DNA of 41,600 nt from Clostridiales bacterium (GCA_009778945.1 WRFF01000001.1:1-41600), one strand, 5' to 3'; shown: positions 12,303 through 29,271, counted from the stretch's first letter. Notes: generated by a model not told the origin, from the sequence alone. Numbers and translations are program-made.

Positions 12303-12440
12303 AGGACCCGACTTGACCGAATTAGTGCATACATCCCCTCGCCCAGCAAATCATGAAATGGCTGATTGCCAACGATTACGAGAGGCCACACTCTCCAAAT
12401 ACTCAAAAAGCGGTTAACTCAGGAGATAGACAGCGCGTTG

Positions 12441-12683: not shown

Positions 12684-12866
12684 GGTCGAGTCAAGTCCCG
12701 AAGGTGGTGTCAGTCTCCCACAAGGCTGACGCCTTTCGTTCCGATGGCCGCGGCTGTAGCCGCAGCCTATATGTTTATGCCATCCGAATTGCAACGATTT
12801 CTCACGCTGACAGACTTATTGCCTCCTGTTTTGCTTTTGAAATGACATTCATCCGTCCCTTGTGGT

Positions 12867-12929
12867 TTCCGGCGATTTGTGTAATAAAATTCCGGCGATT
12901 TGTGTAATAGAGTTTCGGCGATACTTGAC
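12867..12929 (+). repeat. Iteron-like direct repeats upstream of the AAA ATPase gene
   Basis: TTCCGGCGATTTGTGTAATA occurs at 12867-12886 and again at 12890-12909 (23-bp period). A degenerate third copy TTTCGGCGATACTTGAC (12913-12929) overlaps the -35. Confidence 0.7.
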
Positions 12930-12953
12930 TTTTCGTTAAATAATCATTAGAAT
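12925..12953 (+). promoter_or_regulatory. Promoter predicted to give a leaderless mRNA for the DUF4143 ATPase
   Basis: TTGACT (12925-12930), 17-nt spacer, TAGAAT (12948-12953). The ATG at 12960 lies 6 nt after the -10 and has no SD. Confidence 0.5.
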
Positions 12954-12959: not shown

Positions 12960-14255
12960 ATGAATATTGAATATGAAAGATTGATTGAAAATACGCTGTC
13001 AATTTTGATGGAAGAGTTCCCCGCGATAGCTGTTGAAGGGTTGAAAGGCGTGGGGAAATCTGTAAGCGCCGGACGGCTCTCGCGGACGGTATTTGAATTG
13101 GATCAGGCGCGCGATCGGGCGTTGATCGAAAATGATATGGGGGTACTTTCCAGAGAAACGCCGCCTGTTCTGGTTGATGAATGGCAAAGAGTGCCGTCCG
13201 TATGGGATTTCGTGCGGCGGCAAGTGGATAAAGTCGGCACACCGGGTTCGTTTTTGCTTACAGGCTCCGCAAAAAACGCGAATCTCGATCTCCATTCGGG
13301 CGCAGGCCGCATATTTCGGCTCAAGATGTATCCGCTTTCACTGGAAGAGCGCGCGATAGAAAAAAAGACCGTATCACTCGCATCGCTCTTTGAGCAGCAA
13401 AGACCTTTCTCCACAAACATTCGGGGAACCACATCGATCTCCTTTGGGGACTATATGGAAGAGGTCTTGGCGTCCGGTTTGCCGGCGATTCGAAATTATT
13501 CATCGAAGCGGCGGAAACAAATGTTGGGTACTTATTTGGATTATCTTCTGTCTCATGAATTTTTGCAGCAAGGAATCCAAATCAGACAGCCAAGGACATT
13601 GCTCAGATGGTTGACAGCTTATGCCGCCGCGATTTCAAGCGATACAAATTACGGGGAAATTCTCGATACGGCTACGCCCGGCGAAGGGGAAAAGCCTGCG
13701 GCAAAGACGACAATCGCATACAGAGAAGCGCTGGAAAGGCTATGGCTCATAGACGAACTCCCGGTTTGGCTTCACGGAGAAGATTATTTTTCAAGACTGA
13801 AACGAGCCCCCAAACATTATCTGGCCGATCCGGCGTTGGCGGCTTATCTGCTCAATTTTGATATTGACAGCTTGACGAAAAGCGGCACGAACCGACAACC
13901 GGCACGAACCGTTTTTGATGAAAAGGCCGGAGGGATCACCGGACGGTTGTTTGAATCCTTGATTCATCTCAGCCTGAAAACCTACGCGATGGTCAATGAC
14001 GCGGAACTATCCTTTATCCGGACACGGAATGGCGATCATGAAGTCGACTTTATTCTTCAAAAGGGCCGCAAGGTTATTGCGATAGAAGTGAAGATGTCCA
14101 TAGAGATCGAAAGCGGTGATACAAAGCATTTGAAGTGGCTCCGGGGCACGCTGAAGGAAGGCCTGACGGATGCCCTGATTGTTAATACCGGACCGGTAGC
14201 CTATAGGCGGGACGACGGCATTGCGGTCGTACCGGCGTCGCTGCTCGGAGCATAA
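12960..14255 (+). CDS. AAA+ ATPase of the AAA_14/DUF4143 (COG1373) type with a restriction-endonuclease-like C-terminus
   Basis: 431 aa. Walker A GLKGVGKS, Walker B VLVDEWQ, then FLLTGSA. The C-terminal HEVDFIL...IAIEVK resembles a PD-(D/E)xK-like motif. Confidence 0.75.
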   Translation: MNIEYERLIENTLSILMEEFPAIAVEGLKGVGKSVSAGRLSRTVFELDQARDRALIENDMGVLSRETPPVLVDEWQRVPSVWDFVRRQVDKVGTPGSFLLTGSAKNANLDLHSGAGRIFRLKMYPLSLEERAIEKKTVSLASLFEQQRPFSTNIRGTTSISFGDYMEEVLASGLPAIRNYSSKRRKQMLGTYLDYLLSHEFLQQGIQIRQPRTLLRWLTAYAAAISSDTNYGEILDTATPGEGEKPAAKTTIAYREALERLWLIDELPVWLHGEDYFSRLKRAPKHYLADPALAAYLLNFDIDSLTKSGTNRQPARTVFDEKAGGITGRLFESLIHLSLKTYAMVNDAELSFIRTRNGDHEVDFILQKGRKVIAIEVKMSIEIESGDTKHLKWLRGTLKEGLTDALIVNTGPVAYRRDDGIAVVPASLLGA

Positions 14256-14447: not shown

Positions 14448-15509
14448 ATGTCAAAAGTCTTAATCATCGGCGGCGGCCTGGCCGGCGCCGTTACGGCAAA
14501 AGAATTGGCCTCTCAAAATGTTTCGGTGGTGATCGCGGAAGCCTCCGGCTCTTTTGGCGGCAAAGTGCGCGGTTACGGGTGCAAGTCCACGGACAAATGC
14601 GCGAACTGCGGGGTGTGCCTTACAAGGGGCCTGTGGGATTCCGTGGAAAATAACCCGCTTATTGAGATATTGCCGAATACACGGCTTGTTGACCTGATGG
14701 GGGGAAAGGGCTGTTTCACGGCGACGCTGAACACCGGCGGCGCGGTGAGCCCCATGGACGGCATCTCCGACGTGGTGGTCGCGACGGGTTTTGAGCAGAT
14801 GAAAAGAGAGCATGTCAACGCCTTCGTCGAACTGGACGGGGCGGGCCCGGACGACCGGTCCGTAATCACGGGAAGCGACATCGAAAGAATATTCCTGAAT
14901 CGCAGCAAGACGCGTCTGTTTGACCGGGCGCCCGAGCGGATCGCGTTCATCCAATGCTACGGTTCGAGGGACGCGAAGGAAAGGGCCATGTATTGTTCGC
15001 GCGTATGCTGCGGGTATTCGACAAGAGCCGCCAAGGTTATAAAAAATTATTATCCGGACTGTGAAATCACATTTTTTTATATGGAAATGCAGCAGGTGCG
15101 CGGCGGGAATTATTTCGACGAACTCAAAGAGCTCGGTATACGGTTCATCAAGTGCCGGCCGGTCAAGATCCAGGCGGGGGATCCCGCGTCCGTATGGTTT
15201 GACAACCCCGATACGGGGCGCCGCGAAAGACTTGATTTTGACGGAATCGTGCTGAGCGACGGAATACGGCCTTCGGACGGCGCTGCCAGGACCGCGGAGC
15301 TGTGCGGGCTCGGCCAAACCGAAGACGGATTCTTGCGCTATGTTACGGACAGCGGCGACGCGGAACGGACAGGCGTATATATAGCAGGCTGCGCGGGCGG
15401 CCCGGCGCGCATCGAAGAGGTATACGGCGAGTCCGTGGCGGTGGCGCAGCGCATCCTTTTTCAAAAAGAAGCGCCGATTGAAAAAACGGAAAACGGGAGC
15501 GGTGAATGA
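14448..15509 (+). CDS. Minimal HdrA-like FAD oxidoreductase (thioredoxin-reductase-like core only)
   Basis: 353 aa. VLIIGGGLAGA dinucleotide motif, IAFIQCYGSRD...YCSRVCCGYS and GVYIAGCAGGPARIEE are HdrA hallmarks. It has no ferredoxin-type CxxCxxCxxxCP domains. Confidence 0.75.
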   Translation: MSKVLIIGGGLAGAVTAKELASQNVSVVIAEASGSFGGKVRGYGCKSTDKCANCGVCLTRGLWDSVENNPLIEILPNTRLVDLMGGKGCFTATLNTGGAVSPMDGISDVVVATGFEQMKREHVNAFVELDGAGPDDRSVITGSDIERIFLNRSKTRLFDRAPERIAFIQCYGSRDAKERAMYCSRVCCGYSTRAAKVIKNYYPDCEITFFYMEMQQVRGGNYFDELKELGIRFIKCRPVKIQAGDPASVWFDNPDTGRRERLDFDGIVLSDGIRPSDGAARTAELCGLGQTEDGFLRYVTDSGDAERTGVYIAGCAGGPARIEEVYGESVAVAQRILFQKEAPIEKTENGSGE

Positions 15510-16921
15510 TGAACGCGCTGATTCTGGGCAATAACAAAATAAACGCAGAGGCCGCAAGGGTTCTTGCGGAAAGCGGCGTCGGCGCGGAGGTTTTGACGGA
15601 TGTTTCCGAAATCCTGAAATTCTCCGGCGAACCCGGCGGTTACACCGTTGTGACGCAGGACGGGACGGCCCGCTTCACCTCCGTGATCGTAACGGAGCCG
15701 CCGCGTTATGCCGCCGTAGAGGCGGACGGAGGGACATCCGTCTGCCTGGCGGACGAGGCGGAGACAGAACGCCTTTTCGATCCGAAAAGGCGCGACAAGA
15801 TCCTGATTCTGCTCGATTTCGCCGAAGAAACTCCCGAATACCTGGCGGCAAAGGCCGTCCGGCTTGCAGCCCGCCTCGCGAAGGACAAAAAAGACGTTGT
15901 ATTCCTGTCCAAAACCGTGAAAAGCGGCTACGGAGACGGCGAACTTTGCGACAGAGAGGCGAGAAACGCCGGCGTACAGTTCGTGAAATACGAGAAGGCG
16001 TCGGTTCGCTACGATGCCGGGGAAGATATCTTTTGCGTTGAGGCGAATGACGGCGTATTTGAAATCAGCCTTCGATCGCCGTTTCTCGTCACCGCCGGTT
16101 TTGAGGAATCGGGCCAACTCAAGCGCATCGCGAAAAAATTGCGCGTGCGCGGGAGTACGAAAGACGGGATAAACGACGACAGGTTTTTCCTGTACAGCGC
16201 GTTTACGCTGCGCCGCGGGATTTATTATCTGAATCCCGCCCTGACCGCTGGAGACGAGAAACAAAGGGTGAAAGAGGCCCTGCAGCCCCTGATGGAGGAT
16301 ATGGCCTCGATCGGGGCGGACGGCTATGTAAGGGAAATCATCCGGGGCATGGAGATACCGGAAGTCGATCCGAATAAATGTGCGTTTTGCTATTCCTGTT
16401 ACCGGGCCTGCCCGCACGGAGCGCTCGAACCGGACGGCAAAGCCTCCGCGATGAAGGTGATCGAGCCGCTTTGCCAGGCCTGCGCCATCTGCGAAGCGAT
16501 CTGCCCCGCCCAGGCAATCAGCCGGACGGGTGGCGGACCCGCGCCCGCGGGCGGGGGAAAATGTAAGATTTATCTCTGCGAAAACGGCGCGGCCGAAGCG
16601 TTTGACGAAATACTGCCGTCGCTTGGCGACCGCGGGCGCCTGATCGATAGCGTGCGGATTTCCTGCGGAGGAAGCGTGGGGGCCGAATTGCTGACAGGTG
16701 ATTTTAAAGATTATGAGACCGTCATCGTCGCGTGCTGCGTGGAAGATGCATGCCGCCATATGGACGGAGACAAGCGCGCGTGCAAGCAGACGGGGCGCGT
16801 CGCGAATCTCCTGAACAAGGCGGGCCTCGGCGGCAAACACGCCCATGTGATCCATACTTCCCTCGCGATGAAAGACGTGATGAAAGAACAACTGACGCAT
16901 ATACTGGAGGAATCAAATTGA
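15506..16921 (+). CDS. Fusion protein: degenerate HdrA-like N-domain + 2x[4Fe-4S] ferredoxin domain + MvhD-like C-domain
   Basis: 471 aa. The N-terminus ALILGNNKINAEAA sits where GxGxxG is expected. CAFCYSCYRACP and CQACAICEAICP are ferredoxin motifs. The C-terminal IYLCENG...ISCGG...VACCVEDACRH is collinear with the MvhD encoded at 23380. ATGA overlap with the upstream gene. Confidence 0.65.
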   Translation: MMNALILGNNKINAEAARVLAESGVGAEVLTDVSEILKFSGEPGGYTVVTQDGTARFTSVIVTEPPRYAAVEADGGTSVCLADEAETERLFDPKRRDKILILLDFAEETPEYLAAKAVRLAARLAKDKKDVVFLSKTVKSGYGDGELCDREARNAGVQFVKYEKASVRYDAGEDIFCVEANDGVFEISLRSPFLVTAGFEESGQLKRIAKKLRVRGSTKDGINDDRFFLYSAFTLRRGIYYLNPALTAGDEKQRVKEALQPLMEDMASIGADGYVREIIRGMEIPEVDPNKCAFCYSCYRACPHGALEPDGKASAMKVIEPLCQACAICEAICPAQAISRTGGGPAPAGGGKCKIYLCENGAAEAFDEILPSLGDRGRLIDSVRISCGGSVGAELLTGDFKDYETVIVACCVEDACRHMDGDKRACKQTGRVANLLNKAGLGGKHAHVIHTSLAMKDVMKEQLTHILEESN

Positions 16922-17601
16922 TAGTAGCCGAACAAAAACCGATCGATGAGCTCATCCGGTCGCTCGAAGGTTTCAAGAAGATCGTGATTGCTTCCTGCGG
17001 GACCTGCGTGACGGTATGCATGTCCGGCGGCGAGAAAGAGGCGCTGGCCGTGCAGGGCCTGCTGGAGGCAAACGCAAAGGAAAAAGGGCAAGACATTTCC
17101 GTTTCGGTCGTCGATCTGAAACGGCAGTGCGACGATGAATTTATAGATGATCTGGAGGCGGAGCTGCTGGACGGGGATGTGGTCCTTTCGATGGCCTGCG
17201 GCGTGGGCGTCCAGTTCCTGGCCGGAAAATATGCGGACAAGGTGGTGCTGCCCGGCCTCAACACGACGTTTTACGGCGCGGCGAAAGAACTGGGTTATTG
17301 GACGGAGCTGTGCGCGGGATGCGGAAACTGCCTGCTCGAAAGGACCGGCGGCATCTGCCCGATTGCCCGCTGCTCCAAAAGCATTTTCAACGGGCCTTGC
17401 GGCGGGTCGCAAAATGCCAAATGCGAGATCGACAGCGAGATCGACTGCGCCTGGCAATTGATTTACGACAAACTGACCGCCATGGGCCGGCTCGACACGC
17501 TTCTGGAGATCCATGAAATACGTGACTGGAGCACGAGCCGCGACGGCGGCCCCCGCCACCTCCGTAAAGATGACGTCAATCTGGACGATGCCGGGAAATA
17601 G
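16918..17601 (+). CDS. metV: MetV, small cysteine-rich subunit of methylene-THF reductase (MTHFR_C domain)
   Basis: 227 aa from the TTG at 16918 (GGAGG 6 nt upstream; overlaps the preceding TGA). Contains SCGTCVTVC and CAGCGNCLLERTGGICPIARCSKSIFNGPCGG. Confidence 0.8.
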   Translation: MIVAEQKPIDELIRSLEGFKKIVIASCGTCVTVCMSGGEKEALAVQGLLEANAKEKGQDISVSVVDLKRQCDDEFIDDLEAELLDGDVVLSMACGVGVQFLAGKYADKVVLPGLNTTFYGAAKELGYWTELCAGCGNCLLERTGGICPIARCSKSIFNGPCGGSQNAKCEIDSEIDCAWQLIYDKLTAMGRLDTLLEIHEIRDWSTSRDGGPRHLRKDDVNLDDAGK

Positions 17602-17611
17602 GAGGGGCCGC

Positions 17612-18529
17612 ATGGAAACCGAAAAAAGCAATCTGCAAAAGATGCTCGAAGCCGGGGAATTCGCGATCACGGCGGAAATCGGGCCGCCGATGAGCGCGGA
17701 CGGAGAGACCGTCCGTGAGAAGGCCCGGGAGCTGAAAGGGAACGTGGATGCCGTCAATGTGACGGACAACCAAACCTCAATCGTGCGCATGTCGTCTATC
17801 GGCGCGTCCTGTCTGGCGCAGTCGGAGGGCGTCGAGTGCGTCATGCAAATGGTCATGCGGGACAGAAACCGCATTGCGCTGCAAAGCGATCTTTTAGGCG
17901 CGTGGGCGATGGGGCTGAAAAATCTGCTTGTGCTGTCCGGCGACCATCAGTCGTTCGGGAACCATCCGGGCTCCAAAAATGTTTACGACGTGGATTCCAT
18001 CCAGTTCCTGCAGGCCGTCACGAACCTGCAGGAAAACGGCGTGTTCATCGGCGGCAGCAAATGCAAGGCCCCGCCGCATTTCTTCCTGGGCTCTACAACC
18101 AATCCTTTTGCGGACCCGGAGCCGCTCCAGTTGATCCGGCTTGAAAAAAAGATCAACGCCGGCGCGAAATTTATTCAGACGCAATGCGTGTACGACCTCG
18201 AACGGTTTGAACGCTTTATGGAAAAGGTACGCGAGCGCGGCTTGCACGAACGGGCTTATATAATGGCCGGTATCTTTGTGAACAAATCCCTGAAGTCGAT
18301 CCAGATGACCCAGCAGGTGGCGGGGATGAGCGTGCCCGACTCCTATGTGAAGAGATTCGAGGAGGCGGAGGACAAGCAGGCGGAGGGCGTTGAGATAGCC
18401 GTGGAGCTTGTGAAAAAGCTGCGGACTGTCAAAGGCATAAAAGGCATACATATCATGGCCGTCGGCTGGGAAGAAATCGTGTCTACGGTAATCCGGCAAG
18501 CGGGGTTTTTGCCGAGGCCGGTAGTATAG
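17612..18529 (+). CDS. metF: Methylenetetrahydrofolate reductase, catalytic subunit
   Basis: 305 aa from the ATG at 17612 (AGGAGG upstream). FAITAEIGPP...VNVTDNQ...LVLSGD...YDVDS motifs fit the MTHFR TIM barrel. Confidence 0.88.
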   Translation: METEKSNLQKMLEAGEFAITAEIGPPMSADGETVREKARELKGNVDAVNVTDNQTSIVRMSSIGASCLAQSEGVECVMQMVMRDRNRIALQSDLLGAWAMGLKNLLVLSGDHQSFGNHPGSKNVYDVDSIQFLQAVTNLQENGVFIGGSKCKAPPHFFLGSTTNPFADPEPLQLIRLEKKINAGAKFIQTQCVYDLERFERFMEKVRERGLHERAYIMAGIFVNKSLKSIQMTQQVAGMSVPDSYVKRFEEAEDKQAEGVEIAVELVKKLRTVKGIKGIHIMAVGWEEIVSTVIRQAGFLPRPVV

Positions 18530-18542
18530 GAAGGTGCGGAAA

Positions 18543-18923
18543 ATGAATGATTTTAAAAATGACGTAAGGAACACCCCCGGCGGCGCAAACGTACTGAACT
18601 GCTTTCTCTGCGGCTCCTGTACGGCGTGCTGCCCGGTCAATGAAATCGACGACGATTACAATCCGCGCAAAATCATGCGCATGGTCCTGTTGGATATGGA
18701 GGACGATGTGCTGAAGTCGGATGAAATCTGGAAATGCAACCAATGCCATGCGTGCGTCGCACACTGTCCGCAGGACGTGCGCTTTGCCGACATCGTGCGC
18801 GCGCTTCGGGAAATTTCCATCGAACGGGGCTTTCGTGACGAGGCCCTGCTTGCAAAAGTACGGGAATACGACGAAGAGCTGAAACGGCAAAGGCTTGAGA
18901 AAATCAAGGAGGAACTGGCGTGA
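18543..18923 (+). CDS. hdrC: HdrC-like 2x[4Fe-4S] protein (short form)
   Basis: 126 aa. CFLCGSCTACCP and CNQCHACVAHCP match the HdrC-type pattern. The ATG at 18543 has AGGAAGG upstream; an alternative GTG lies at 18534. Confidence 0.7.
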   Translation: MNDFKNDVRNTPGGANVLNCFLCGSCTACCPVNEIDDDYNPRKIMRMVLLDMEDDVLKSDEIWKCNQCHACVAHCPQDVRFADIVRALREISIERGFRDEALLAKVREYDEELKRQRLEKIKEELA

Positions 18924-21900
18924 AAAAACCGGTTATGGTAGTCGGCGGCGGGATCGCCGGAATCCAGGCCTCCCACAATCTGGCCGAGATGGGTGTCCCG
19001 GTATTTTTGGTGGAATCGTCCCCGTCCATCGGCGGCCGGATGGCGCAACTGGACAAGACTTTTCCCACGAACGATTGCTCGGCGTGCATCCTGGCGCCGA
19101 AAGTGACGGAGTGTTTCAATCATCCGCTGGTGAAGACGCTCTCTTACAGCGAGGTCGTCGAGATCAAGGGCGAGGCGCCCGATCTGACCGCGGTTATTCG
19201 CCGCAAACCGCGCTTTGTGGACGAAGCGGCGTGCACCGGGTGCAATGACTGTTTCGAGTCCTGCCCCGTGACGGTAAAATCCGAATTCGATATGGGGATG
19301 GGCGACCGCAAGGCTATCTATAAGCCGTTTGCGCAAGCCGTGCCGAACAAAGCCGTGATCGACAAGAAGGGCACGTCGCCGTGCAAATTCGATTGCCCCG
19401 CGTATATGGACGCGCACGCGTATGTCACGCTTGTGGGCGCCGAAAAGTATGAGGAAGCGCTTGGCGTGATACGGCGCACGACGCCGTTTGCGGGCGTGCT
19501 CGGGCGCGTATGCGTCCATCCGTGCGAGTCGAACTGTTCGCGCCGGTTTGTGGAAGAGCCTGTCTCTATCGCGTCGCTGAAAAGGTTTGTGTCCGACCAG
19601 GTAAAAGCGCAGGGCGGCCTGAGCCCGCTTGAGATCAAGGCGAAGCCGAAGGAAAAGAAAGCCGCCGTGATCGGCGCGGGCCCGTCGGGCCTGAACTGCG
19701 CGTACAAACTGGCGCAGGCCGGCTATGGCGTTACGGTATTTGAGGCGCTGCCCGTTCCCGGCGGCATGCTGAAAGTGGGCATCCCGGACTACCGGCTGGA
19801 TAAAGATATTTTGGCCGAAGAGATCCAATTGATCGAGGATATGGGCGTCGAGATCAAACTCGGGAAGGCGCTCGGGAAGGATTTCACGCTGGCGCAGCTC
19901 AGGGAGGAAGGATACGGTGCCGTGTATGTGGCGATCGGCGCGCACAAGGACCAGCGCCTCGGCATTCCCGGCGAGGACGCGGAAGGCGTGATCTCTTCGG
20001 TCGAGTTCCTCCGGGACGTCAATTTGGGCGGCAGAACGAAGCCCGGCCAAAAAGTGCTTGTGATCGGCGGCGGGGACGTCGCGATGGACGCGGCGCGCTC
20101 GGCGCTCCGGCTCGGGTGCGACGTGACGGTTGTCTACCGCCGCAGCCAGAGCGAGATGCCCGCGGCCGAACTGGAAATAGAACACGCCACGGACGAGGGC
20201 GTACAGTTTATGTATCTGACCGCACCGGCGGAAGTGATCGTAAAAGACGGCCGGCCGGCCGGTCTGAAATGTGTGAAAAACAAGCTCGGGGCGAAGGACG
20301 CGAGCGGCCGCAGAAGGCCTGTGCCGATAGAGGGATCGGAATTTACCCTCGACGCGGACTGCATTATCTACGCGGTCGGGCAGCGCGCGGAGCGGGAGAA
20401 ACTGCTCGAAGCGGGCCTTGATATTTTTAACGAAAAGGGCGCCATGGTTTGCGACCGCGCCACCGCGAAGACGAATATGGACGGTATTTTTGCGGGCGGC
20501 GACGGCAGCCGCGCCCCGACGACCGTGATCGAGGCCATTGCGGACGGCAACCGGGCCGCGAACGCGATTATCAATTATCTGGAAGGCTCGGAACTTCCGC
20601 TGGACCCGTTCGTCCTGCCGCAGACAAACATCGAGGAAGTCGATACGCGCAGTTTCAGCGCAAACGCGCGCGCGCGGATGCCTTTGATCGCTATGAAACG
20701 CCGCAGGACAACCTTTGACGAGGTGGAGGCCGGCTATACGAAAGAAGAGGCGGTGTATGAGGCGAAGCGGTGCGTCGACTGCTCGATTTGCTGCGAATGC
20801 CAGCTTTGCGTACAGGCCTGCAAGGCAAACGCCCTGTACCACGAGCAGCACGAAACGATCGTCGAGATCCCTGTCGCGTCGGTGGTCTTTTCGTCGGGCT
20901 ATGACGCGACGGCAGAAATACCAACAGGTTTCGGGTACGAGCGGTACCAAGACGTCGTGACAAGCCTGGAATATGAACGCATCCTGTCCGCGGGCGGGCC
21001 TTACACAGGCCATGTCCAGCGGCCCTCCGACGGCCGTCCGCCCGAGCGGATCGCGTTTATTCAGTGCGTCGGTTCCCGCGACGCTTCCTGCGGCAACGAT
21101 TATTGCTCGTCCGTATGCTGCATGTATGCGATCAAAGAGGCAATGATCACGAAGGAACACCTTACCACAGTCAAGGATATCGACATCTATTATATGGATA
21201 TGCGCGCGTTCGGTAAGGATTTTGATAAGTATATCGATTCGGCCAAGGAAAAATACCATATCGGGTTCATCCGCAGCCGCATCGGGGGCATTGAGGAAAA
21301 TCCGGAGAACGGGCGCCTCGCGCTGCGGTATGTCGCGGAGAACGGCAGGGGAATGTCGGCCGAGTACGATATGGTGGTGCTTTCCGTCGGGATGAAGCCG
21401 AACGCGGAAAATGTGAAACTTCTGTCCAGGATCGGCGTCAAGACCGATAAATACGGCTTTGTATGGTCGAACGAGTTCAATTCGCCTGTTACGAACAAGG
21501 AAGGGTTCTACGCGTGCGGCGTGGCCGCGGGCCCGAAAGATATCCCCGAAACGGTCATTGAGGCGAGCGCGGCCGCCGCCGCCGCGGCAAAGGACGCCGG
21601 GCTGCGCGAGATCGATTTATATGAGGATTACAGCGCGTTTTTCAAGGACGAACCGCTGCCTCCGATGCGCGACGTTTCAAAAGAACCGATCCGGATAGGC
21701 GTGTTCATCTGCCACTGCGGCGTAAACATCGCCGGGTATGTGGGCGTGGACGACGTTGCCGAATACGCGAAGGCACTGCCGTTTGTCGAGCATGTCGAAA
21801 CCAACCTCTATACCTGTTCGATCGATTCGCAGGCGGCGATCGCGGAGAAGATACAGGAATATAACCTGAACCGTGTCGTCGTCGCGTCGTGTACGCCGCG

Positions 21901-23383
21901 CACCCATGAACCGCTGTTTCATGGGATGATGAGAAGGGCCGGGCTCAATCCCTATCTTTTCACGATGGCCAATATACGCGATCAATGTTCCTGGGTCCAT
22001 ATGGACAACAACGAGATTGCGACCCATAAGGCGAAAGATCTGGTGCGCATGGCGGTCGGCAAGGTGACGTATGCAAAGCAGCTCACGCGCAAGAAGATTG
22101 ACGTGACTAAATCCGCACTCGTCATAGGCGGCGGCGCGGCCGGCCTGGCAGCGGCGCTGAGCGTTGCGGAGACGGGCTATCCCGCTTATCTGATCGAGCG
22201 TACGGATGCGCTCGGTGGGAACGCGGCCCGGGTCGCCACAAGCAATCTCGGCAGGCCCGTATCCCCTTACGTGCGGGAACTGATCGAAAAAGTCAGCAAC
22301 CATCCGCTGATCACCGTTTTCCTGAACACCACCGCGGAGTCTACGGAAGGCTTTGTGGGCAATTTCAAGACGGCGCTCAAAAGCGGCGATCTGACGCACG
22401 AGGTCGAACATGGCGTTGTCATCGTCGCGACCGGGGCAAACGAGCGGAAGCCGGACGAGTATCTGTACGGAAAAGATAAGCGCGTTATGACGATGCTGGA
22501 GTTTGAGAAATTTGCGGAAAACGGATTCGCGGACCTGAAAGCGAAAAAGGTCGTGATGATCCAGTGCGTCGGGTCCCGTGAGGGCGACCGCCCGTACTGC
22601 AGCCGCGTCTGCTGCAACCAGGCGGTGAAAAACGCGATCCTGCTGAAAGACCTGGATCCCGAAATTGAGGTGACGATCCTGTACCGCGAGATTCGGACAT
22701 ACGGGCTGAACGAGCTGAATTATGTCGAAGCCCGCAGGAAGGGCGTGCGGTTTGTGCTTTACGACGTGGAGCGGAAGCCGGTTGTGACGAAGGCCAAAGG
22801 TAGCCTGAAGGTGACGGTTTTCGAGCCGCGCCTCGGGAAAGAAATCGAGCTGGAGGCGGATCTGCTCGCGCTCAGCTCCGCCATCGTGGCCGACGCGGAA
22901 AACAACAAGCAAATCGCGCAGATGTTCAAAGTGCCGCTGAATCAGGAAAATTTCTTCCTCGAGGCGCACGTGAAACTCCGTCCGGTCGATTTTGCGACGG
23001 AAGGCGTGTATCTGTGCGGGCTGGCGCATTCGCCGAAGTCCATAAAGGAAAGCATTATACAGGGCCGCGCCGCGGCCGGCCGCGCGATGACGGTCATAGC
23101 CAAAGAGCAGCTTGAAACCGAAGGCATGATCGCGTTTGTCGATCCGAACCTCTGCGTCGCGTGCGGCGCGTGCGTGGAAGTCTGCGCCTATAACGCGGTC
23201 GAGATACAGGACGTACCCGTTCGCGGCGGCACGGTCAAACGCGCGGTGGTGAACGACGTCCTGTGCAAAGGCTGCGGAACGTGCTCGGCTACCTGCCGAT
23301 GCGGCGCGATCGACGTGAACGGATTCTTGGATAAACAGGTGCTCTCCGAGATCGAGTACCTGCTGCGCCGGAGCGCAATATGA
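18920..23383 (+). CDS. hdrA: Giant HdrL-type protein: HdrA module 1 interrupted by a GltD/NfnB-like NAD(P)H-FAD module (~19380-20585), then a complete HdrA module 2 (~21680-23383)
   Basis: 1487 aa. VMVVGGGIAGIQ...TFPTNDCSACILAPK (HdrA). CPAYMD...GRVCVHPCESNC...AAVIGAGPSG...VLVIGGGDVAMD...FAGGD (GltD-like). IAFIQCVGSRD...CSSVCC. Then IGVFICHCGVNIAGYV...ALVIGGGAAGL...MIQCVGSRE..YCSRVCC...CVACGACVEVC/CKGCGTCSATC. GTGA overlap with hdrC. Confidence 0.85.
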   Translation: MKKPVMVVGGGIAGIQASHNLAEMGVPVFLVESSPSIGGRMAQLDKTFPTNDCSACILAPKVTECFNHPLVKTLSYSEVVEIKGEAPDLTAVIRRKPRFVDEAACTGCNDCFESCPVTVKSEFDMGMGDRKAIYKPFAQAVPNKAVIDKKGTSPCKFDCPAYMDAHAYVTLVGAEKYEEALGVIRRTTPFAGVLGRVCVHPCESNCSRRFVEEPVSIASLKRFVSDQVKAQGGLSPLEIKAKPKEKKAAVIGAGPSGLNCAYKLAQAGYGVTVFEALPVPGGMLKVGIPDYRLDKDILAEEIQLIEDMGVEIKLGKALGKDFTLAQLREEGYGAVYVAIGAHKDQRLGIPGEDAEGVISSVEFLRDVNLGGRTKPGQKVLVIGGGDVAMDAARSALRLGCDVTVVYRRSQSEMPAAELEIEHATDEGVQFMYLTAPAEVIVKDGRPAGLKCVKNKLGAKDASGRRRPVPIEGSEFTLDADCIIYAVGQRAEREKLLEAGLDIFNEKGAMVCDRATAKTNMDGIFAGGDGSRAPTTVIEAIADGNRAANAIINYLEGSELPLDPFVLPQTNIEEVDTRSFSANARARMPLIAMKRRRTTFDEVEAGYTKEEAVYEAKRCVDCSICCECQLCVQACKANALYHEQHETIVEIPVASVVFSSGYDATAEIPTGFGYERYQDVVTSLEYERILSAGGPYTGHVQRPSDGRPPERIAFIQCVGSRDASCGNDYCSSVCCMYAIKEAMITKEHLTTVKDIDIYYMDMRAFGKDFDKYIDSAKEKYHIGFIRSRIGGIEENPENGRLALRYVAENGRGMSAEYDMVVLSVGMKPNAENVKLLSRIGVKTDKYGFVWSNEFNSPVTNKEGFYACGVAAGPKDIPETVIEASAAAAAAAKDAGLREIDLYEDYSAFFKDEPLPPMRDVSKEPIRIGVFICHCGVNIAGYVGVDDVAEYAKALPFVEHVETNLYTCSIDSQAAIAEKIQEYNLNRVVVASCTPRTHEPLFHGMMRRAGLNPYLFTMANIRDQCSWVHMDNNEIATHKAKDLVRMAVGKVTYAKQLTRKKIDVTKSALVIGGGAAGLAAALSVAETGYPAYLIERTDALGGNAARVATSNLGRPVSPYVRELIEKVSNHPLITVFLNTTAESTEGFVGNFKTALKSGDLTHEVEHGVVIVATGANERKPDEYLYGKDKRVMTMLEFEKFAENGFADLKAKKVVMIQCVGSREGDRPYCSRVCCNQAVKNAILLKDLDPEIEVTILYREIRTYGLNELNYVEARRKGVRFVLYDVERKPVVTKAKGSLKVTVFEPRLGKEIELEADLLALSSAIVADAENNKQIAQMFKVPLNQENFFLEAHVKLRPVDFATEGVYLCGLAHSPKSIKESIIQGRAAAGRAMTVIAKEQLETEGMIAFVDPNLCVACGACVEVCAYNAVEIQDVPVRGGTVKRAVVNDVLCKGCGTCSATCRCGAIDVNGFLDKQVLSEIEYLLRRSAI

Positions 23384-23871
23384 AAGGGGCGTCTTCCATG
23401 AAAGAAAACGAGAAGAAAACGCCGAACAAAGACTGGGACCCGGTCATCGTCGCCTTTTTGTGCACCTGGTGCTCGTACTCTGGGGCGGATCTTGCCGGAA
23501 CGAGCAGGTTGCAATACCCGCCGAATATCCGCATCATCCGCGTGCCGTGCTCGGGGCGCATCAATCCGCTCTATATTATAAAGGCGCTGACGGAAGGCGC
23601 GGACGGCGTCATGGTGTCGGGCTGCCATCCTGGCGACTGCCACTATTTGGCGGGCAATCTGTTTGCGCGCAGGCGTTTTGTCGTATTGAAAAAACTGCTT
23701 GAAACCTGCGGCCTGAATCCGGATCGCGTCCAGTTCACCTGGGTTTCGGCGTCGGAAGGCGGAAGGTTCGCGGAAGTGATCAAAGAGGTCACGGCCAATG
23801 TCAAAAAGATCGGCCCGAACAGGATTGTGCCGGGGTTCGCGGAAGACTGCAAGGAGGCGAGCGCCGAATGA
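23380..23871 (+). CDS. mvhD: MvhD/FlxD-like hydrogenase iron-sulfur subunit (FlpD family)
   Basis: 163 aa. VAFLCTWCSYSGADLAG...IRIIRVPCSGRINP...GADGVMVSGCHPGDCHY. ATGA overlap with the upstream gene. Confidence 0.85.
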   Translation: MKGASSMKENEKKTPNKDWDPVIVAFLCTWCSYSGADLAGTSRLQYPPNIRIIRVPCSGRINPLYIIKALTEGADGVMVSGCHPGDCHYLAGNLFARRRFVVLKKLLETCGLNPDRVQFTWVSASEGGRFAEVIKEVTANVKKIGPNRIVPGFAEDCKEASAE

Positions 23872-24725
23872 TTTATGAAGAGATGACAAAACAGATAAGG
23901 GAGGCCGCAAAAAGGCTTCTCAAAGAAGGCGCCGTCGACGTGATTTTGGCGTACCGGGGCGGAGGCCTGAACGAAATGCAAGTCCCGTTCTTCGTAAAGA
24001 AACCGGAGGACGCGGAGCTGATTGAATGGGGCGACCGCTGCTATCAGAACCTTGCGCCCTATGTACACGGGCTGAATAAAAAAGTCGGGATCCTGGCAAA
24101 ACCCTGCGACGTCCGCGCTATCGTGCAGTACATCACGGAATTTCAGATTGAACGCGACAAGGTAACGATTATCGGCGTGGACTGTATCGGCATGGTGGAT
24201 GAAAACGGAAACGCCCGGCCGGGCTGCAGCGAATGCCGCGTGCATAAACCGCCGGTTTACGACGAATACATCCGGGACGAACGGGCGGCGAACCTGCCGG
24301 CAATCGAACCGAAGGCCGGGGAAACGACGCTGGAAGAAAACCTGGAGCGTTTCCAGAAGGAGATTGACAAATGCATCCTGTGTTACTCCTGCCGCCAAGC
24401 CTGTTACGGCTGCTATTGTAAAACCTGCTTCATCGAGCGCGATATGCCGGATTGGCAGCCCGCGGAGATCGATACGGGTACGAAAATAACCTTTCACATG
24501 GGCCGCGCGATGCATCTCGCCGGGCGCTGCGTCGACTGCGGCGCGTGCGAGGCCGCATGCCAGTCGGGCGTCAATGTGCGGTATATCATCCGCGAAGTCA
24601 CGAAATTCATCGAGGACGCTTACGGATACAGCGCGGGAATGGATGCGGAGGAGCCGCCCGCATTGCTGACAAATAAATTTGACGACAAAGAGTTCGGTTT
24701 TTTGGGAGGTGAGCGACATGAGTGA
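23868..24725 (+). CDS. FlxB/FlxC-like iron-sulfur protein related to sulfhydrogenase beta / AsrA
   Basis: 285 aa. CILCYSCRQACYGCYCKTC plus CVDCGACEAACQSG have the same cluster layout as the next gene (CQSCGICTYVCPTCHC / CTGCGRCIRSCPAG). ATGA overlap. Confidence 0.5.
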   Translation: MIYEEMTKQIREAAKRLLKEGAVDVILAYRGGGLNEMQVPFFVKKPEDAELIEWGDRCYQNLAPYVHGLNKKVGILAKPCDVRAIVQYITEFQIERDKVTIIGVDCIGMVDENGNARPGCSECRVHKPPVYDEYIRDERAANLPAIEPKAGETTLEENLERFQKEIDKCILCYSCRQACYGCYCKTCFIERDMPDWQPAEIDTGTKITFHMGRAMHLAGRCVDCGACEAACQSGVNVRYIIREVTKFIEDAYGYSAGMDAEEPPALLTNKFDDKEFGFLGGERHE

Positions 24726-25701
24726 AGCCGCGATCAAGCTGACAAAGGGCGAACTCGAAAAAATGCTGGCCGCTTTGATGCGCGACAGAACGGTATTCGC
24801 TCCGGGGTCGACCGGCGCGAAGCTGGAATATCTGCCCGTGGATGACGTCTCCGACATCGTGTTCGGTGACGAGCTTCCCTACAAATCCCCCAAGGATGTT
24901 TTTTTCCCGAGGTGCGAAAAGATCGTCACGTTCTCGGAGAACGGGGCGGAGGCCGAACTGCCGGAAACGCAGACGGTTCTGTTCGGCGCGCGCCCTTGCG
25001 ACCTGGAAGCGCTCGATATGCTGAAGACGATCCTCACGCAGGGCAAGTTCAAAGACCCGTTTTTCGCGGCGCGCTATGAGAACGCGCTGATCATCGGGCT
25101 GGCCTGCGCGGAGAAAAAACCGGGGTGCTTCTGCGACCAGCGCGAGACCGATCTGGACTACAGTGAAAAATGTGATCTGTTTTTGAGGGCGGACGGCGAC
25201 AAATTTGAAGTGCTGTACGTTTCCGATAAGGGAAAAAAAGCGCTGGGCGCGCATATCCCGGGGCTGGAACAGTTCAAAAATACCCCGAGGGAATTCCGGC
25301 CTGCGGAGACGCTTTCTTTGGACGCGGCCGAAGATGACCTGTTTACCAAAATCGACTGGGAAGAAATCACGGAGACCTGTCAGAGCTGCGGTATCTGCAC
25401 CTATGTCTGTCCGACCTGTCACTGCTTCATGTTTAAAGACGTGGAGGAGGACGATAAGGCATATCGGTACAGAAACTGGGATAGCTGCATGTTCCCGAAA
25501 TTTACGCTTCACGCTTCCGGGCACAATCCGAGGGCGGCGAAACGCGAACGCTATCGCCAGCGCGTTGCGCACAAATACGTGTATATCAAGGAAAACTTCG
25601 GCATGACCGCCTGTACCGGCTGCGGCAGATGTATCCGGAGCTGCCCCGCCGGCATGAGCATCAAAACGGTGGTCGAAGGGATCCGGGAGGAGCTTCAATG
25701 A
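24718..25701 (+). CDS. AsrA / sulfhydrogenase-beta / FlxB-like 2x[4Fe-4S] protein
   Basis: 327 aa from the ATG at 24718 (GGAGGTG upstream; 8-nt overlap with the upstream gene). CQSCGICTYVCPTCHCF...NWDSCMF...RYRQRVAHKY...CTGCGRCIRSCP. Confidence 0.7.
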   Translation: MSEAAIKLTKGELEKMLAALMRDRTVFAPGSTGAKLEYLPVDDVSDIVFGDELPYKSPKDVFFPRCEKIVTFSENGAEAELPETQTVLFGARPCDLEALDMLKTILTQGKFKDPFFAARYENALIIGLACAEKKPGCFCDQRETDLDYSEKCDLFLRADGDKFEVLYVSDKGKKALGAHIPGLEQFKNTPREFRPAETLSLDAAEDDLFTKIDWEEITETCQSCGICTYVCPTCHCFMFKDVEEDDKAYRYRNWDSCMFPKFTLHASGHNPRAAKRERYRQRVAHKYVYIKENFGMTACTGCGRCIRSCPAGMSIKTVVEGIREELQ

Positions 25702-26537
25702 ATATGAACCCCTATCTTCCGCTGAAGGCGGAAATCGTGGATATCGTCCAGGAAACGACCGATTCGGAGCTCGATGTCAAAACCTACGCGCTGAAGCTCG
25801 GCGGCGGCGCGAAGATGGAGTTTATGCCCGGCCAGTTTGTGGAGCTTTCTGCCCCGGGCGTGGGCGAGGCGCCGTTCGGCTTCGCGTCCAATCCTCTCCG
25901 AAACGACACGATCGAAATCTCAATCAAGCGGACCGGGATGGTGACGGACGCGATCCACTCGCTCGAAATCGGCGACAGCATTTTTATTCGCGGGCCTTTC
26001 GGAAACACCTTTCCGGTGAAAGGGCTCGAGGGAAGCGATATCCTGTTTATTGCGGGCGGGCTCGGGCTTGCGCCGCTCCGTCCGCTCATCACTTATATCT
26101 TCGAGGAGGAAAACCGCGCAAAATACGGAAAGATACAGATGCTGATTGCCGCGCGCACACCCACGGATTTCATCTTTTTCCGCGATTATGCGGAATGGCG
26201 CAAAATAAAAGACGTAGAGATCACGCTCACGATCGACAACGAGGTCCCGAACTGGGCCGAACGGGTCGGGTTCCCGCACAATCTGGTTACGGAGATGTCG
26301 TTTGATTTGGAGAAGACTTATGCGGTTCTGTGCGGCCCGCCGATCATGATCAAAGCGGTTTCCCAAAAGCTCATGGAGATGGGGATGCCGCAGGACCGCA
26401 TTCTGACGACGCTGGAAATGCGTATGACCTGCGGCGTCGGGAACTGCGGGAAATGCAATATCGGCCATCAGTACGTATGCGTGGACGGGCCTGTCTTCAG
26501 CCTCGCGGAGCTGGAGGGAATGCCCGATGAGTATTGA
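25698..26537 (+). CDS. AsrB / sulfhydrogenase-gamma / FlxA-like FAD-NAD(P)H oxidoreductase with a C-terminal [2Fe-2S] site
   Basis: 279 aa. FMPGQFVELS, ILFIAGGLGLAPL, CGPPIM and C-terminal CGVGNCGKCNIG..VCVDGPVF. ATGA overlap. Confidence 0.75.
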   Translation: MNMNPYLPLKAEIVDIVQETTDSELDVKTYALKLGGGAKMEFMPGQFVELSAPGVGEAPFGFASNPLRNDTIEISIKRTGMVTDAIHSLEIGDSIFIRGPFGNTFPVKGLEGSDILFIAGGLGLAPLRPLITYIFEEENRAKYGKIQMLIAARTPTDFIFFRDYAEWRKIKDVEITLTIDNEVPNWAERVGFPHNLVTEMSFDLEKTYAVLCGPPIMIKAVSQKLMEMGMPQDRILTTLEMRMTCGVGNCGKCNIGHQYVCVDGPVFSLAELEGMPDEY

Positions 26538-26610: not shown

Positions 26611-27486
26611 ATGGCGGAACTGTTAAAAGGCATGGAAGTCGCAAACGGAATGAAACAGCGGCTCATAGACAAGAATAACGAACTGATTGCGAAAGGGGTT
26701 GTCCCGTGCCTTGCCATCGTCCGGGTCGGGGGGCGGCCCGACGATCTGGCGTATGAAAGGGGCGCGCTGAAGCGCTTTGAAGGCCTTGGGATCCGGGTAA
26801 AGGTTGCGGAGATACCAGAATCGGCCACACAGGAGGCGTTTGAGCGGGAATTTTCCGAAATAAACGGGGATCCATCCGTTCACGGGATCCTGCTGTTTCG
26901 GCCGCTTCCGAAATCGCTGGACGAAGAGCCTGTCAAAAAACTCATCGATCCCGAAAAAGATGTGGACTGCATGTGCGCCGCCAACATCGCAAAAGTATTT
27001 ATGGGCGATGATTCGGGTTACGCGCCCTGCACGCCCCAGGCAGTCGTGGAGCTTCTGAAGCACTACGAAATCCCGCTTGCAGGCGCACAAATTGCGTTGA
27101 TCGGGCGTTCCATGGTTGTCGGCAAACCGCTTGCCATGCTACTGCTCAAGGAAAACGCTACGGTCACTCTTTGCCATTCCAAAACCGTGAATTTGCCGGA
27201 AGTTTGCCAGAGAGCGGACATTGTGGTCGCCGCGGCGGGCTCCGCCAAAATGGTAACGAAAGATTTTGTCAGGCCGGGTGCGGTCGTAATCGACGTGGGC
27301 ATCAATGACGACGGGGCCGGAGGCATCTGCGGCGACGTGGCTTTTGACGAGGCGGAAGCCGCCTGCGGCGCCATCACGCCCGTGCCGGGCGGCGTCGGGA
27401 GCGTCACGACCTCGGTTTTGGCCATGAATACGCTGAAGGCAGCGGAGCGCGCGCTCCTGCGTCCGGGCGGTCGGCCGGAGGGATAA
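26611..27486 (+). CDS. folD: Bifunctional methylene-THF dehydrogenase / methenyl-THF cyclohydrolase
   Basis: 291 aa. PCLAIVRVG, VHGILLFRPLP, CTPQAVVELL, IGRSMVVGKP and ITPVPGGVGSVT. Confidence 0.93.
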   Translation: MAELLKGMEVANGMKQRLIDKNNELIAKGVVPCLAIVRVGGRPDDLAYERGALKRFEGLGIRVKVAEIPESATQEAFEREFSEINGDPSVHGILLFRPLPKSLDEEPVKKLIDPEKDVDCMCAANIAKVFMGDDSGYAPCTPQAVVELLKHYEIPLAGAQIALIGRSMVVGKPLAMLLLKENATVTLCHSKTVNLPEVCQRADIVVAAAGSAKMVTKDFVRPGAVVIDVGINDDGAGGICGDVAFDEAEAACGAITPVPGGVGSVTTSVLAMNTLKAAERALLRPGGRPEG

Positions 27487-27594
27487 GCAGACGGAAAACT
27501 CGAGGAAACACCGGTAAATAACCTGAAATTGGTATCGGTATTTCCCTAAATTTATTATGGCATATTGCAAAAAGTAAAAATTAAGGAGGAAACA

Positions 27595-29271
27595 ATGAGT
27601 TTTAAGTCAGACATCGAAATCGCACAGGAAACGGAAATGCGGCCGATCGCGGAGATCGCGGAAAAACTCGGCATCGACGAGAAATACGTGGATCCATACG
27701 GAAAATACAAAGCAAAGATCGATTACAATATTTTGGACAATTATGCGGACAAACCGAACGGGAAGCTCGTGCTCGTGACGGCGATCACGCCTACGCCGGC
27801 TGGCGAAGGGAAAACGACGACGACCGTCGGCCTTTCGGACGCGCTTCGGTATATCGGCAAGAAGAGCGTTGTGGCGCTGCGGGAACCGTCGCTCGGCCCC
27901 GTGTTCGGCGTGAAAGGCGGCGCCGCGGGCGGCGGATACGCGCAGGTCGTCCCGATGGAGGATATCAACCTGCATTTCACCGGGGATTTCCACGCGATCG
28001 GCGCGGCGAACAATCTGCTCGCAGCCATGCTGGACAACCATATCCATCAGGGCAACGAGCTCGGTATCGATGGGCGCCGGATCATCTGGAAGCGCTGCAT
28101 GGATATGAACGACCGGCAGTTGCGCTTCGTCGTGGACGGCCTCGGCGGCAAAGCGAACGGCACGCCGCGTGAAGACGGGTTTGACATCACGGTCGCATCG
28201 GAGATCATGGCAATTCTGTGCCTGTCGAAAAATATCCGCGATATGAAGGAGCGGATCGGGCGCATTATCGTCGCGTATACGTATGACGGCAAGCCGGTGA
28301 CGGCAAGCGATCTGAAGGCGCAGGGCGCGATGGCCGCGTTGTTGAAAGAAGCGCTTAAACCCAATCTTGTACAGACGCTCGAAGGCACCCCGGCGTTTAT
28401 CCATGGCGGGCCTTTTGCGAATATCGCGCATGGCTGCAATTCGGCGATGGCCACGCGCCTCGCGCTCAAACTCGGCGATTACGCCGTGACGGAAGCCGGC
28501 TTCGGCGCGGATCTCGGAGCGGAAAAATTTATGGACATCAAATGCCGCGCATTGGGGATCAAGCCAAGCGCAGCCGTCATCGTGGCGACGGTCCGCGCGC
28601 TGAAGCACCACGGGGGCGTCCCCAAGACCGAGTACGGCGTCGAAAATCTCGAAGCGCTCGAAAAAGGGCTCCCGAACCTGCTGCAGCATGTGGCGAACGT
28701 CACGCAGGTTTTCGGCATCCCCGCGGTCGTCGCCATCAACCGGTTCCCGACCGATACGGAAGCGGAACTCAAACTGATCGAAACCAAATGCCGCGAACTC
28801 GGCGTCAACGTGGCGCTTTCGGAAGTGCATTCCAAAGGCGGCGCGGGCGGCGAAGCGTTGGCGAAGGAAGTCGTCCGGCTGTGTGAGACGGAGAGCGTGC
28901 TGAACCATCCCTACGATCTGACGGATTCGATCGAAGACAAACTGTACAAAATCGCCACGAAAGTCTATCACGGCTCAGGCGTCGCGCTCACGGCGGAGGC
29001 GAAGAAACAGGTTGAGCTGCTGACGTCGCTGGGCTTCGCGGAATTCCCGATCTGCATGGCGAAGACGCAGTACAGCTTTTCGGATAACGCCGCGCTGATC
29101 GGCGCGCCGAAGGATTTTGAGGTGACGGTACGCAATCTGAAAGTATCGGCGGGCGCGGGCTTTATCGTGGCGCTTACGGGCGATATCATGACGATGCCGG
29201 GCCTTCCAAAAGTGCCGAGCGCCGAAAAGATCGACGTGGACGACAACGGAAAGATCGAAGGATTGTTCTAG
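27595..29271 (+). CDS. fhs: Formate-tetrahydrofolate ligase
   Basis: 558 aa from the ATG at 27595 (AAGGAGG upstream). SDIEIAQE...[16 protein letters not shown]...[19 protein letters not shown]. Confidence 0.96.

Follow-up and report, generated by a model that had tools for sequence, protein, structure and literature searches.

A stretch of 41,600 nucleotides from a Clostridiales bacterium (GCA_009778945.1 WRFF01000001.1:1-41600), analysed here over its whole length as the window, carries ten successive genes on the plus strand between positions 14448 and 26537. These genes, g1 to g10 below, were found by listing open reading frames (ORFs) and reading the junctions directly. They encode MetV and MetF of methylene-tetrahydrofolate (methylene-THF) reductase, a short HdrC-like protein, a large tandem HdrA, an MvhD subunit and a Flx-like NAD(P)H module, preceded by a split HdrA-like/MvhD pair. 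Four types of methylene-THF reductase (MTHFR) have been published, MetF, MetVF, MetVF-RnfC2 and MetVF-HdrCBA-MvhD (PMC8760232). Judging from the sequences, and with slightly better than even confidence, we read the ten genes as coding for one multi-subunit methylene-THF reductase derived from the last of these, type IV, in which HdrB would have been lost, HdrC shortened, and g1, g2 and g8 to g10 added.

The sequence-only reading of this DNA had described ten translationally coupled genes, and every junction that it gave was reproduced. Overlaps of 4 nucleotides (nt) with the sequence ATGA join g1 to g2 (15506), g6 to g7 (23380), g7 to g8 (23868) and g9 to g10 (25698); at 16918 the TTG start of metV lies over the TGA stop of g2, at 18920 hdrC and g6 overlap in GTGA, and at 24718 g8 and g9 overlap by 8 nt. 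The metF gene is flanked by gaps, of 10 nt on the metV side and 13 nt on the hdrC side. A Shine-Dalgarno sequence of the GGAGG type precedes most of the ten starts. The public gene call for g6 begins at ATG 18935 and gives 1482 amino acids (aa), but the Shine-Dalgarno sequence is better spaced from GTG 18920, a start that gives 1487 aa, homologues being typically 1487-1488 aa long. Scanning for promoters and terminators returned fewer matches than shuffled sequence, leaving operon boundaries and internal transcription units undefined either way, and an Rfam search of the window gave no match.

Table. Genes of the operon, followed by other genes of the window. Values after model or chain names are E-values; Cys, cysteine residues.
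Gene	Position	Strand	Product	Support
g1	14448-15509	+	small HdrA-like flavoprotein, 353 aa	Pfam Pyr_redox_2; sHdrA 6tjr_A 8e-28 end to end; HdrA 8rvv_A 4e-33
g2	15506-16921	+	471 aa	Pfam Fer4, FlpD; NCBIfam HdrA2 positions 439-624
g3	16918-17601	+	MetV, 227 aa, TTG start	PF12225 2.7e-35; 13 invariant Cys
g4	17612-18529	+	MetF, methylene-THF reductase catalytic subunit, 305 aa	PF02219 5e-41; NCBIfam MTHFR models
g5	18543-18923	+	truncated HdrC-like 2x[4Fe-4S] protein, 126 aa	TIGR03290 1.2e-22; eight invariant Cys
g6	18920-23383	+	tandem HdrA, 1487 aa, 161.8 kDa	HdrA 5odc_A 1.8e-185 in four stretches; NfnB 4ylf_B 7.8e-87
g7	23380-23871	+	MvhD/FlxD-like [2Fe-2S] subunit, 163 aa	PF02662 2e-55; VhuD model 5e-42
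g8	23868-24725	+	Fe-S protein in FlxC position, 285 aa	15 invariant Cys; 9t1s_M 9e-25; 8rvu_E 4e-19; 7bkb_E 2.4e-18
g9	24718-25701	+	FlxB-like (AsrA/sulfhydrogenase beta), 327 aa	15 invariant Cys; PF17179 3.5e-32; AsrA 3e-43; HydB 3.5e-41; 9nez_B 8.8e-38
g10	25698-26537	+	FlxA-like FAD/NAD(P)H/[2Fe-2S] subunit, 279 aa	FAD_binding_6, NAD_binding_1, DHODB_Fe-S_bind; HydG 2.5e-60; AsrB 4e-59
folD	26611-27486	+		Pfam
fhs	27565-29271	+		Pfam
NuoE-like	29282-29740	+		Pfam
NuoF-like	29875-31143	+		Pfam
FDH alpha	31202-33964	+	formate dehydrogenase alpha, 920 aa	Pfam; N-terminal 2Fe-2S/4Fe-4S NuoG-like domains
fdhD	34336-35097	+		Pfam
hydA	35993-37735	-	HydABC-type [FeFe] hydrogenase	Pfam
hydB	37748-39547	-		Pfam
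hydC	39540-40043	-		Pfam
AAA_14/DUF4143	12960-14255	+	ATPase	
RloB-like	35180-35857	-		

Proteins were assigned with Pfam and NCBIfam models, with phmmer against PDB sequences and by the invariance of motifs across loci. The model calls agree with the gene content first proposed: MetV and MetF, HdrC in a short form, modules like HdrA, MvhD twice, and a set resembling AsrA/AsrB. In the window and nine other loci with the same gene order, described below, the cofactor-binding cysteines and nucleotide motifs are invariant for the six subunits that were aligned (g1, MetV, HdrC and g8 to g10), including all eight cluster cysteines of HdrC. No relative of MetV was found among the solved structures of the PDB. 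The HdrC-like g5 covers positions 3-84 of the 144 in TIGR03290 and 24-132 of the 198 in the HdrC model NF041779, and the C-terminal part of HdrC is missing. The HdrC of the ten-gene clusters is 126-158 aa long, against mostly 173-231 aa where it is unfused and has a CCG-domain (HdrB-type) neighbour, and at least 385 aa in the HdrCB fusions of related loci.

The absence of HdrB, also claimed from the sequence alone, held within the window on two scans. The CCG motif, C-x(25-45)-CC-x(30-42)-C-xx-C, has no match in any of the six window frames; the sole CCG tripeptide within the ten genes belongs to the HdrA-type cluster motif of g1. A CCG hidden Markov model (HMM), built from 85 CCG domains of related loci and run on ORFs of at least 30 aa, recovered the HdrB of three control loci at E <= 1e-39 and, even at E <= 10, matched nothing in the window or the nine syntenic loci. 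The sequence out to about 9-10 kb from the cluster is free of CCG domains in all ten of these independent loci. In related clusters that do contain HdrB, its gene adjoins that for HdrC or is fused to it, and HdrC is shortened specifically in clusters without an adjacent CCG gene. The difference in HdrC length is as expected after loss of the HdrB partner.

The largest protein, g6, is a tandem HdrA of the kind known from Moorella. Its module A comprises residues 6-150 and 624-890, of which 6-150 correspond to residues 147-291 of the methanogen HdrA 5odc_A and 624-834 to residues 293-504. This module is without the HdrA N-terminal domain but keeps Cys194 and Cys197 (C53 and C56 of g6). Between its two parts, exactly between HdrA residues 291 and 293 and hence midway through the inserted ferredoxin domain, lies a GltD/NfnB-like module for flavin adenine dinucleotide (FAD), NAD(P)H and two [4Fe-4S] clusters (residues ~153-620; also 5jca_L 1.2e-82). 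Module B, residues 922-1487, has the N-terminal, thioredoxin-reductase (TrxR) and C-terminal ferredoxin domains but neither the inserted ferredoxin domain nor the Cys197 motif; here residues 923-1095 correspond to HdrA 3-175 and residues 1334-1485 to HdrA 506-653. The bifurcating methanogen-type HdrA is marked by a TrxR-fold FAD domain with the cluster motif CxGSRD...YCSxVCC, by an N-terminal domain whose cluster is completed by Cys197 of the partner protomer, and by an inserted and a C-terminal ferredoxin domain; these features are all present in g6, split over the two modules. The cofactor motifs of the large HdrA, like those of g2, are invariant in wider sets of homologues as well.

The HdrA of Moorella thermoacetica has a mass of 162.8 kDa, an N-terminal TrxR domain interrupted by GltD and, from aa 922 to 1487, a further HdrA part at the C-terminus (PMC9430772), and its halves show complementary loss of Cys197 and of the N-terminal domain (PMC9012536). 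It oxidises NADH and is a member of a MetVF-associated complex (PMC9430772). In length and domain boundaries g6 agrees with this published type IV HdrA, and its architecture is the same. The multiple HdrA modules and the GltD/NfnB module of the sequence-only reading are no new additions, and both turn out to be parts of a known type of protein (PMC9430772). HdrA/GltD fusions had been named HdrL in 2009 (PMC2702500), and g6 as a novel fusion of the HdrL type was likewise dropped, the published Moorella protein having equal length and boundaries.

The genes g8 to g10 are among the differences from the Moorella system. By published description, g10 and g7 fit FlxA and FlxD, and g9, clearly HydB/AsrA-like, would be FlxB. 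As outlined in PMC10084766, the Flx subunits are homologues of the subunits of the Pyrococcus soluble hydrogenase minus the catalytic one, and together with HdrABC they form an NADH-oxidising, probably bifurcating complex. The g10 protein is kin to AsrB, sulfhydrogenase gamma and PyrK (PyrK superfamily, NF000796 1e-45), with an invariant GGxGxxP motif and four cluster cysteines. In the NfnAB transhydrogenase a PyrK-like subunit, NfnA, is paired with the GltD-like bifurcating NfnB; g10 is not adjacent to the NfnB-like GltD module. For g8 the only structural relatives are C-terminal regions of formate dehydrogenase beta (FdhB) from solved Fdh-Hdr complexes, whose Fe-S part is matched by the C-terminal half of g8. 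An argument that the Flx-like module is a real entry point for electrons comes from shorter relatives of g6. A subgroup of large HdrA proteins is ~1300 aa long (that of L086, Bacillota LX-D, at 9001-12933, and P0100, P0104, P0106, P0108, P0110, P0111 and P0117), relatives other than LX-D spanning 1293-1355 aa, and LX-D is among the members with the ten-gene cluster that have this form. Missing from the HdrA of LX-D is the counterpart of g6 residues ~359-534, where the GltD insertion has its NAD(P)H-binding subdomain, so that FlxA would be the sole pyridine-nucleotide site there.

At the other end of the operon, g1 has a GxGxxG motif for FAD and eight cysteines invariant in the ten loci, C45/51/54/57 and the C170/183/187/188 cluster 'CxGSRD...YCSRVCC'. 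In g2, a HdrA/TrxR-like fold (residues 1 to ~280) is followed by a 2x[4Fe-4S] ferredoxin (~285-340) and a C-terminal MvhD/FlpD domain (~356-468). Residues 1-280 received no Pfam call, but an AlphaFold model built with 40 homologues (pLDDT, the predicted local distance difference test, 82.5) has HdrA 5odh_A (4e-15) and 6tjr_A as its best Foldseek matches in the PDB. The four HdrA-like folds and two MvhD modules of the earlier reading are thereby borne out, FlpD being called in both g2 and g7. Because G8 alone of the dinucleotide motif is invariant in the 40 homologues, g2 is, on this model, probably a protein of HdrA fold that does not bind FAD. Searched with a g2 profile, a library clustered at 50% identity gave 491 representatives at E <= 1e-30; of the 60 with the best scores, about 45 are matched over almost the full profile. 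The idea that g1 and g2 form a general MetVF-associated pair was rejected, since the HdrA-like genes after metF in Desulfarculus (L045) are generic and not orthologues of g1 and g2.

Full-length relatives of g6 are very common: a pattern search of the GTDB species representatives gave 600 matches or more, of which tblastn confirmed 599, in Desulfobacterota, Acidobacteriota, Chloroflexota, Bacillota, Planctomycetota and archaea. When the ten window proteins were mapped onto 80 other GTDB loci with a large HdrA, the pair of large HdrA and MvhD was found next to metV/metF in about 37 of the 80 and next to homologues of g8 to g10 in about 14, and both partnerships thus recur independently. A survey of gene neighbourhoods had been proposed with the first reading, and it located nine other loci in which the ten genes stand in this order: L001/L002 (a Clostridiales metagenome-assembled genome, MAG), L003 (the completely sequenced isolate Anoxybacterium hadale, CP042469), L004, L005, L006, L057, L084 (Synergistales), L085 (Oscillospiraceae) and L086 (Bacillota LX-D, GCA_031628995). 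All are without CCG, and in all ten loci metVF keeps its position between g2 and hdrC. Their g6 homologues are 56-78% identical to g6 (L001-L006 and L084-L086), or 44% in the more divergent L057, where the gene in the g2 position matches in the ferredoxin region only. In other arrangements the identity is at most 51%, and all sampled close relatives (at least 55% identity) carry the ten-gene arrangement. This split in identity suggests a single origin for the arrangement. The cluster adjoins fhs and/or folD in the window and in L001/L002, L005, L006, L057, L084 and L086, and corrinoid methyltransferases in L085.

Elsewhere the same parts are combined differently. All six type IV genes, in the order hdrC-hdrB-hdrA-mvhD-metV-metF, occur in several phyla (e.g. 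L060, L066 and L067), and another recurrent order is hdrA-mvhD-metV-metF followed by hdrC/hdrB. Some Desulfobacterales have hdrA-mvhD-g8-g9-g10 without CCG. In L087, a Bacillota MAG whose large HdrA is 51% identical to g6, hdrB-hdrA-mvhD-g8-g9-g10-hdrC lies in a cluster for acetyl-CoA synthase and CO dehydrogenase (ACS/CODH) with no metVF nearby. The acetyl-CoA synthase product of that contig (1-8805) has 1713 aa and two intein/LAGLIDADG insertions in precomputed Pfam calls. Four Syntrophales loci (L009, L012, L019 and L024) have large hdrA-mvhD-g8-hdrC-hdrB-g9-g10, with hdrCB amid the Flx-like genes and no metVF. Directly upstream of the large hdrA, at about 1 kb, nine Desulfobacterota loci (L036, L037, L041, L046, L050, L054, L070, L077 and L082) have a further MetF-like gene of divergent sequence, its product 32-37% identical to the window MetF. 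These loci also have a metV-metF pair downstream of mvhD wherever the contig reaches, and several are without a CCG gene.

A scheme for electron flow can be drawn by analogy with the methanogen enzyme and the Moorella HdrA, and from these we infer the assembly of the complex, its donors and acceptors, bifurcation, the ferredoxin partner and the feeding of MetV by HdrC. One protomer would have a mass of ~440 kDa, with the Flx-type set g8 to g10 docked through the MvhD g7. NAD(P)H would be oxidised at the GltD-like FAD of the large HdrA, at the FlxA-like g10, or at both, and electrons entering at FlxA would be relayed from g10 by g9, g8 and the MvhD g7 to module B. Its N-terminal domain would receive them, and the cluster there, completed by Cys56 of module A, would feed an HdrA flavin, where the electron pair would be split. 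The high-potential electron would reach the flavin of MetF by way of the short HdrC and MetV and reduce methylene-THF, and the low-potential electron would leave by a ferredoxin-type domain to ferredoxin. NADH has a standard potential (E0') of -320 mV. With an E0' of about -200 mV for methylene-THF, the reaction of 2 NAD(P)H, methylene-THF and oxidised ferredoxin would be close to equilibrium and therefore reversible, so that oxidation of methyl-THF by confurcation would be possible. In L085 the ten-gene cluster is followed, at 16655-20695, by genes for a RACo activase, a URO-D-like methyltransferase, a B12-binding protein and a pterin-binding methyltransferase; this corrinoid methyltransferase set hints at methyl-group oxidation rather than acetogenesis, which the reverse reaction would fit.

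In favour of a single complex we count the overlapping junctions, g2/metV included, the order conserved in nine other loci, the invariant cofactor motifs, the Moorella-type g6, the recurring partnerships of large HdrA and MvhD, the shortened HdrC, the short HdrA of LX-D and the pathway context. Several observations weigh against a complex of this kind. In Sporomusa ovata the Hdr and MvhD proteins did not co-purify with MetVF (PMC9430772). For the Moorella enzyme the transfer of electrons from NADH to methylene-THF has never been observed, ferredoxin is not the missing partner, and a 2026 paper favours menaquinol (PMC13040438). The negative search for CCG spans 41.6 kb of the source genome, and HdrB may be encoded elsewhere in it. 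It is unlikely, though still to be reckoned with, that the operon co-transcribes two or more separate enzymes, a ferredoxin-dependent MetVF resembling type II and an NAD(P)H:ferredoxin or other-acceptor oxidoreductase of HdrA, HdrC, MvhD and Flx that balances redox carriers. The S. ovata MetVF was purified alone and used reduced ferredoxin, Hdr and MvhD appearing only in pull-downs (PMC9430772), and sets of large HdrA, MvhD and Flx-like genes without metVF exist in Desulfobacterales, Syntrophales and the Bacillota ACS cluster (L007, L009, L012, L021, L025 and L087). Such a division is hard to square with metVF in mid-operon, overlapping g2 and holding its place in ten loci, or with the pairing of large HdrA/MvhD and metVF in about half of 80 unrelated loci. 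That an ordinary type IV enzyme is completed by an HdrB from another part of the genome seems very unlikely to us. The sequence visible here is limited to 41.6 kb, and in published surveys hdrABC is often not co-located with metFV-mvhD (PMC6085437), but the lack of CCG domains around ten independent clusters, the HdrC of 126-158 aa in place of the usual 173-231 aa and the habit of related clusters to keep HdrB beside HdrC, or fused to it, all count against a distant gene.

A single enzyme need not bifurcate. The Hdr and Flx proteins could act as an electron wire to MetVF in an NAD(P)H-dependent reductase, much as in the RnfC2-MetVF of type III. Reduction of methylene-THF by NAD(P)H is exergonic and coupling would be unnecessary, non-bifurcating enzymes that contain HdrA are known (PMC9430772), and apart from MetF the only evident substrate sites are the FlxA-like and GltD-like modules. 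For a wire, however, ten subunits, four or more sites for flavin and over 20 predicted Fe-S clusters would be far too many, and the C-terminal ferredoxin domains and the methanogen bifurcation core of module A, Cys197 included, are conserved; we consider the wire quite unlikely. The most far-reaching form of the single-complex reading is that the ten genes make a self-contained fifth type of MTHFR, for which NAD(P)H, ferredoxin and methylene-/methyl-THF would suffice to bifurcate or confurcate, HdrB and a thiol/disulfide or quinone partner playing no part. This is a serious possibility, but on balance we doubt it.

The genes around the operon suit a place in the Wood-Ljungdahl pathway's methyl branch. 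Pfam agrees with the downstream folD, fhs, formate dehydrogenase (FDH) and HydABC genes named in the sequence-only reading, and adds that FDH is linked to NuoE and NuoF and that HydABC is on the minus strand. The FDH set (29282-35097) looks NAD(P)-linked or bifurcating, and as the ORF for the alpha subunit has no in-frame stop, it is not a selenocysteine enzyme. Two further genes may represent small insertions. One encodes an AAA_14/DUF4143 ATPase and immediately precedes the operon, where the GC content is low (0.48 at 12-14 kb, compared with ~0.56-0.59 in the flanks); the other, RloB-like, lies between fdhD and hydA.

The second electron partner of the type IV enzyme has been in question since 2014, and ferredoxin, a quinone and menaquinol have each been proposed for it (PMC8760232, PMC9430772, PMC13040438). 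A natural variant without HdrB, which keeps the large HdrA, MvhD, HdrC and MetVF and adds an NAD(P)H module, offers a cleaner system in which to study the role of the Hdr module. The arrangement is present in the isolate A. hadale and, apparently, in strain LX-D, which brings it within reach of experiments on cultured bacteria. Neither the pathway nor these genes are mentioned in the published description of A. hadale. Metabolic reconstruction from MAGs also stands to gain, as the genes are now annotated just as 'FAD-dependent oxidoreductase', '4Fe-4S binding protein' or 'hydrogenase iron-sulfur subunit'. Were the fifth type real, HdrB of Moorella would lie off the path to MetVF, the 'third substrate' of the Hdr-linked MTHFRs would come into sight, and many uncultured gut, digester and sediment members of the Clostridia and Synergistales would usually have the enzyme in this form.

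Among known systems the closest is the type IV enzyme of M. thermoacetica, which has in common with the window MetV, MetF, HdrC, MvhD, the 1487-aa tandem HdrA with its GltD insertion and the setting in the Wood-Ljungdahl methyl branch. The window differs in having no HdrB, an HdrC of 126 aa and five extra genes (g1, g2 and g8 to g10), and its order g1-g2-metV-metF-hdrC-hdrA-mvhD contrasts with the Moorella-like order of L060, L066 and L067. FlxABCD-HdrABC of Desulfovibrio vulgaris, as far as the outline description goes, shares an MvhD-like protein and homologues of sulfhydrogenase beta and gamma encoded beside hdrA and hdrC, with an NAD(P)H-binding FAD/[2Fe-2S] subunit; on the same description the window departs from it in the missing HdrB, the large tandem HdrA, the embedded MetVF and a g8 that looks FdhB-like rather than sulfhydrogenase-like. 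Neither DsrC nor alcohol dehydrogenase had a match among the window ORFs scanned. HdrL of Desulfobacterium autotrophicum and the HdrA-NfnB fusions HdrA9-11 of ANME-1 likewise carry a GltD/NfnB-like insertion of ~470-500 aa in the inserted ferredoxin domain and are followed by mvhD (PMC2702500, PMC9012536), but they belong to sulfate reducers and methanotrophs and are without the MetVF/Flx arrangement of the window.

The front pair of genes has relatives of its own. The g1 protein aligns over its full length with sHdrA of Hyphomicrobium denitrificans (6tjr_A), and g1 and g2 together cover the profile of HdrA2, the HdrA-MvhD fusion of Methanosarcina acetivorans HdrA2B2C2, with its TrxR, ferredoxin and MvhD domains. 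In the window that protein is split in two, the TrxR-like domain of g2 is without the FAD dinucleotide motif, and there are no HdrB2C2 partners. An hdrA and hdrC without hdrB were reported in 2018 from the MAG NPL-UPA2 of a putative acetogen, where the authors suggest that a HydB-like (sulfhydrogenase-beta-like) protein is 'replacing' HdrB (PMC6305446). That set, likened here by its description only, lies beside etfAB and not in a ten-gene operon with metVF (PMC6305446). Literature searches on MetVF or MetF with Flx, on the absence of HdrB and on cryo-electron microscopy brought up no description of the ten-gene arrangement. The gene content agrees with the merger, proposed from the sequence alone, of a Moorella-type MetVF/Hdr/MvhD set and a Flx-type NAD(P)H module. 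Of the 'new class' proposed with it, what stands is that the arrangement falls outside the four published types (PMC8760232); 'new variant of type IV' is the better name. The finding overturns nothing, and defines a conserved, HdrB-less and Flx-equipped form of the most enigmatic enzyme of the Wood-Ljungdahl pathway.

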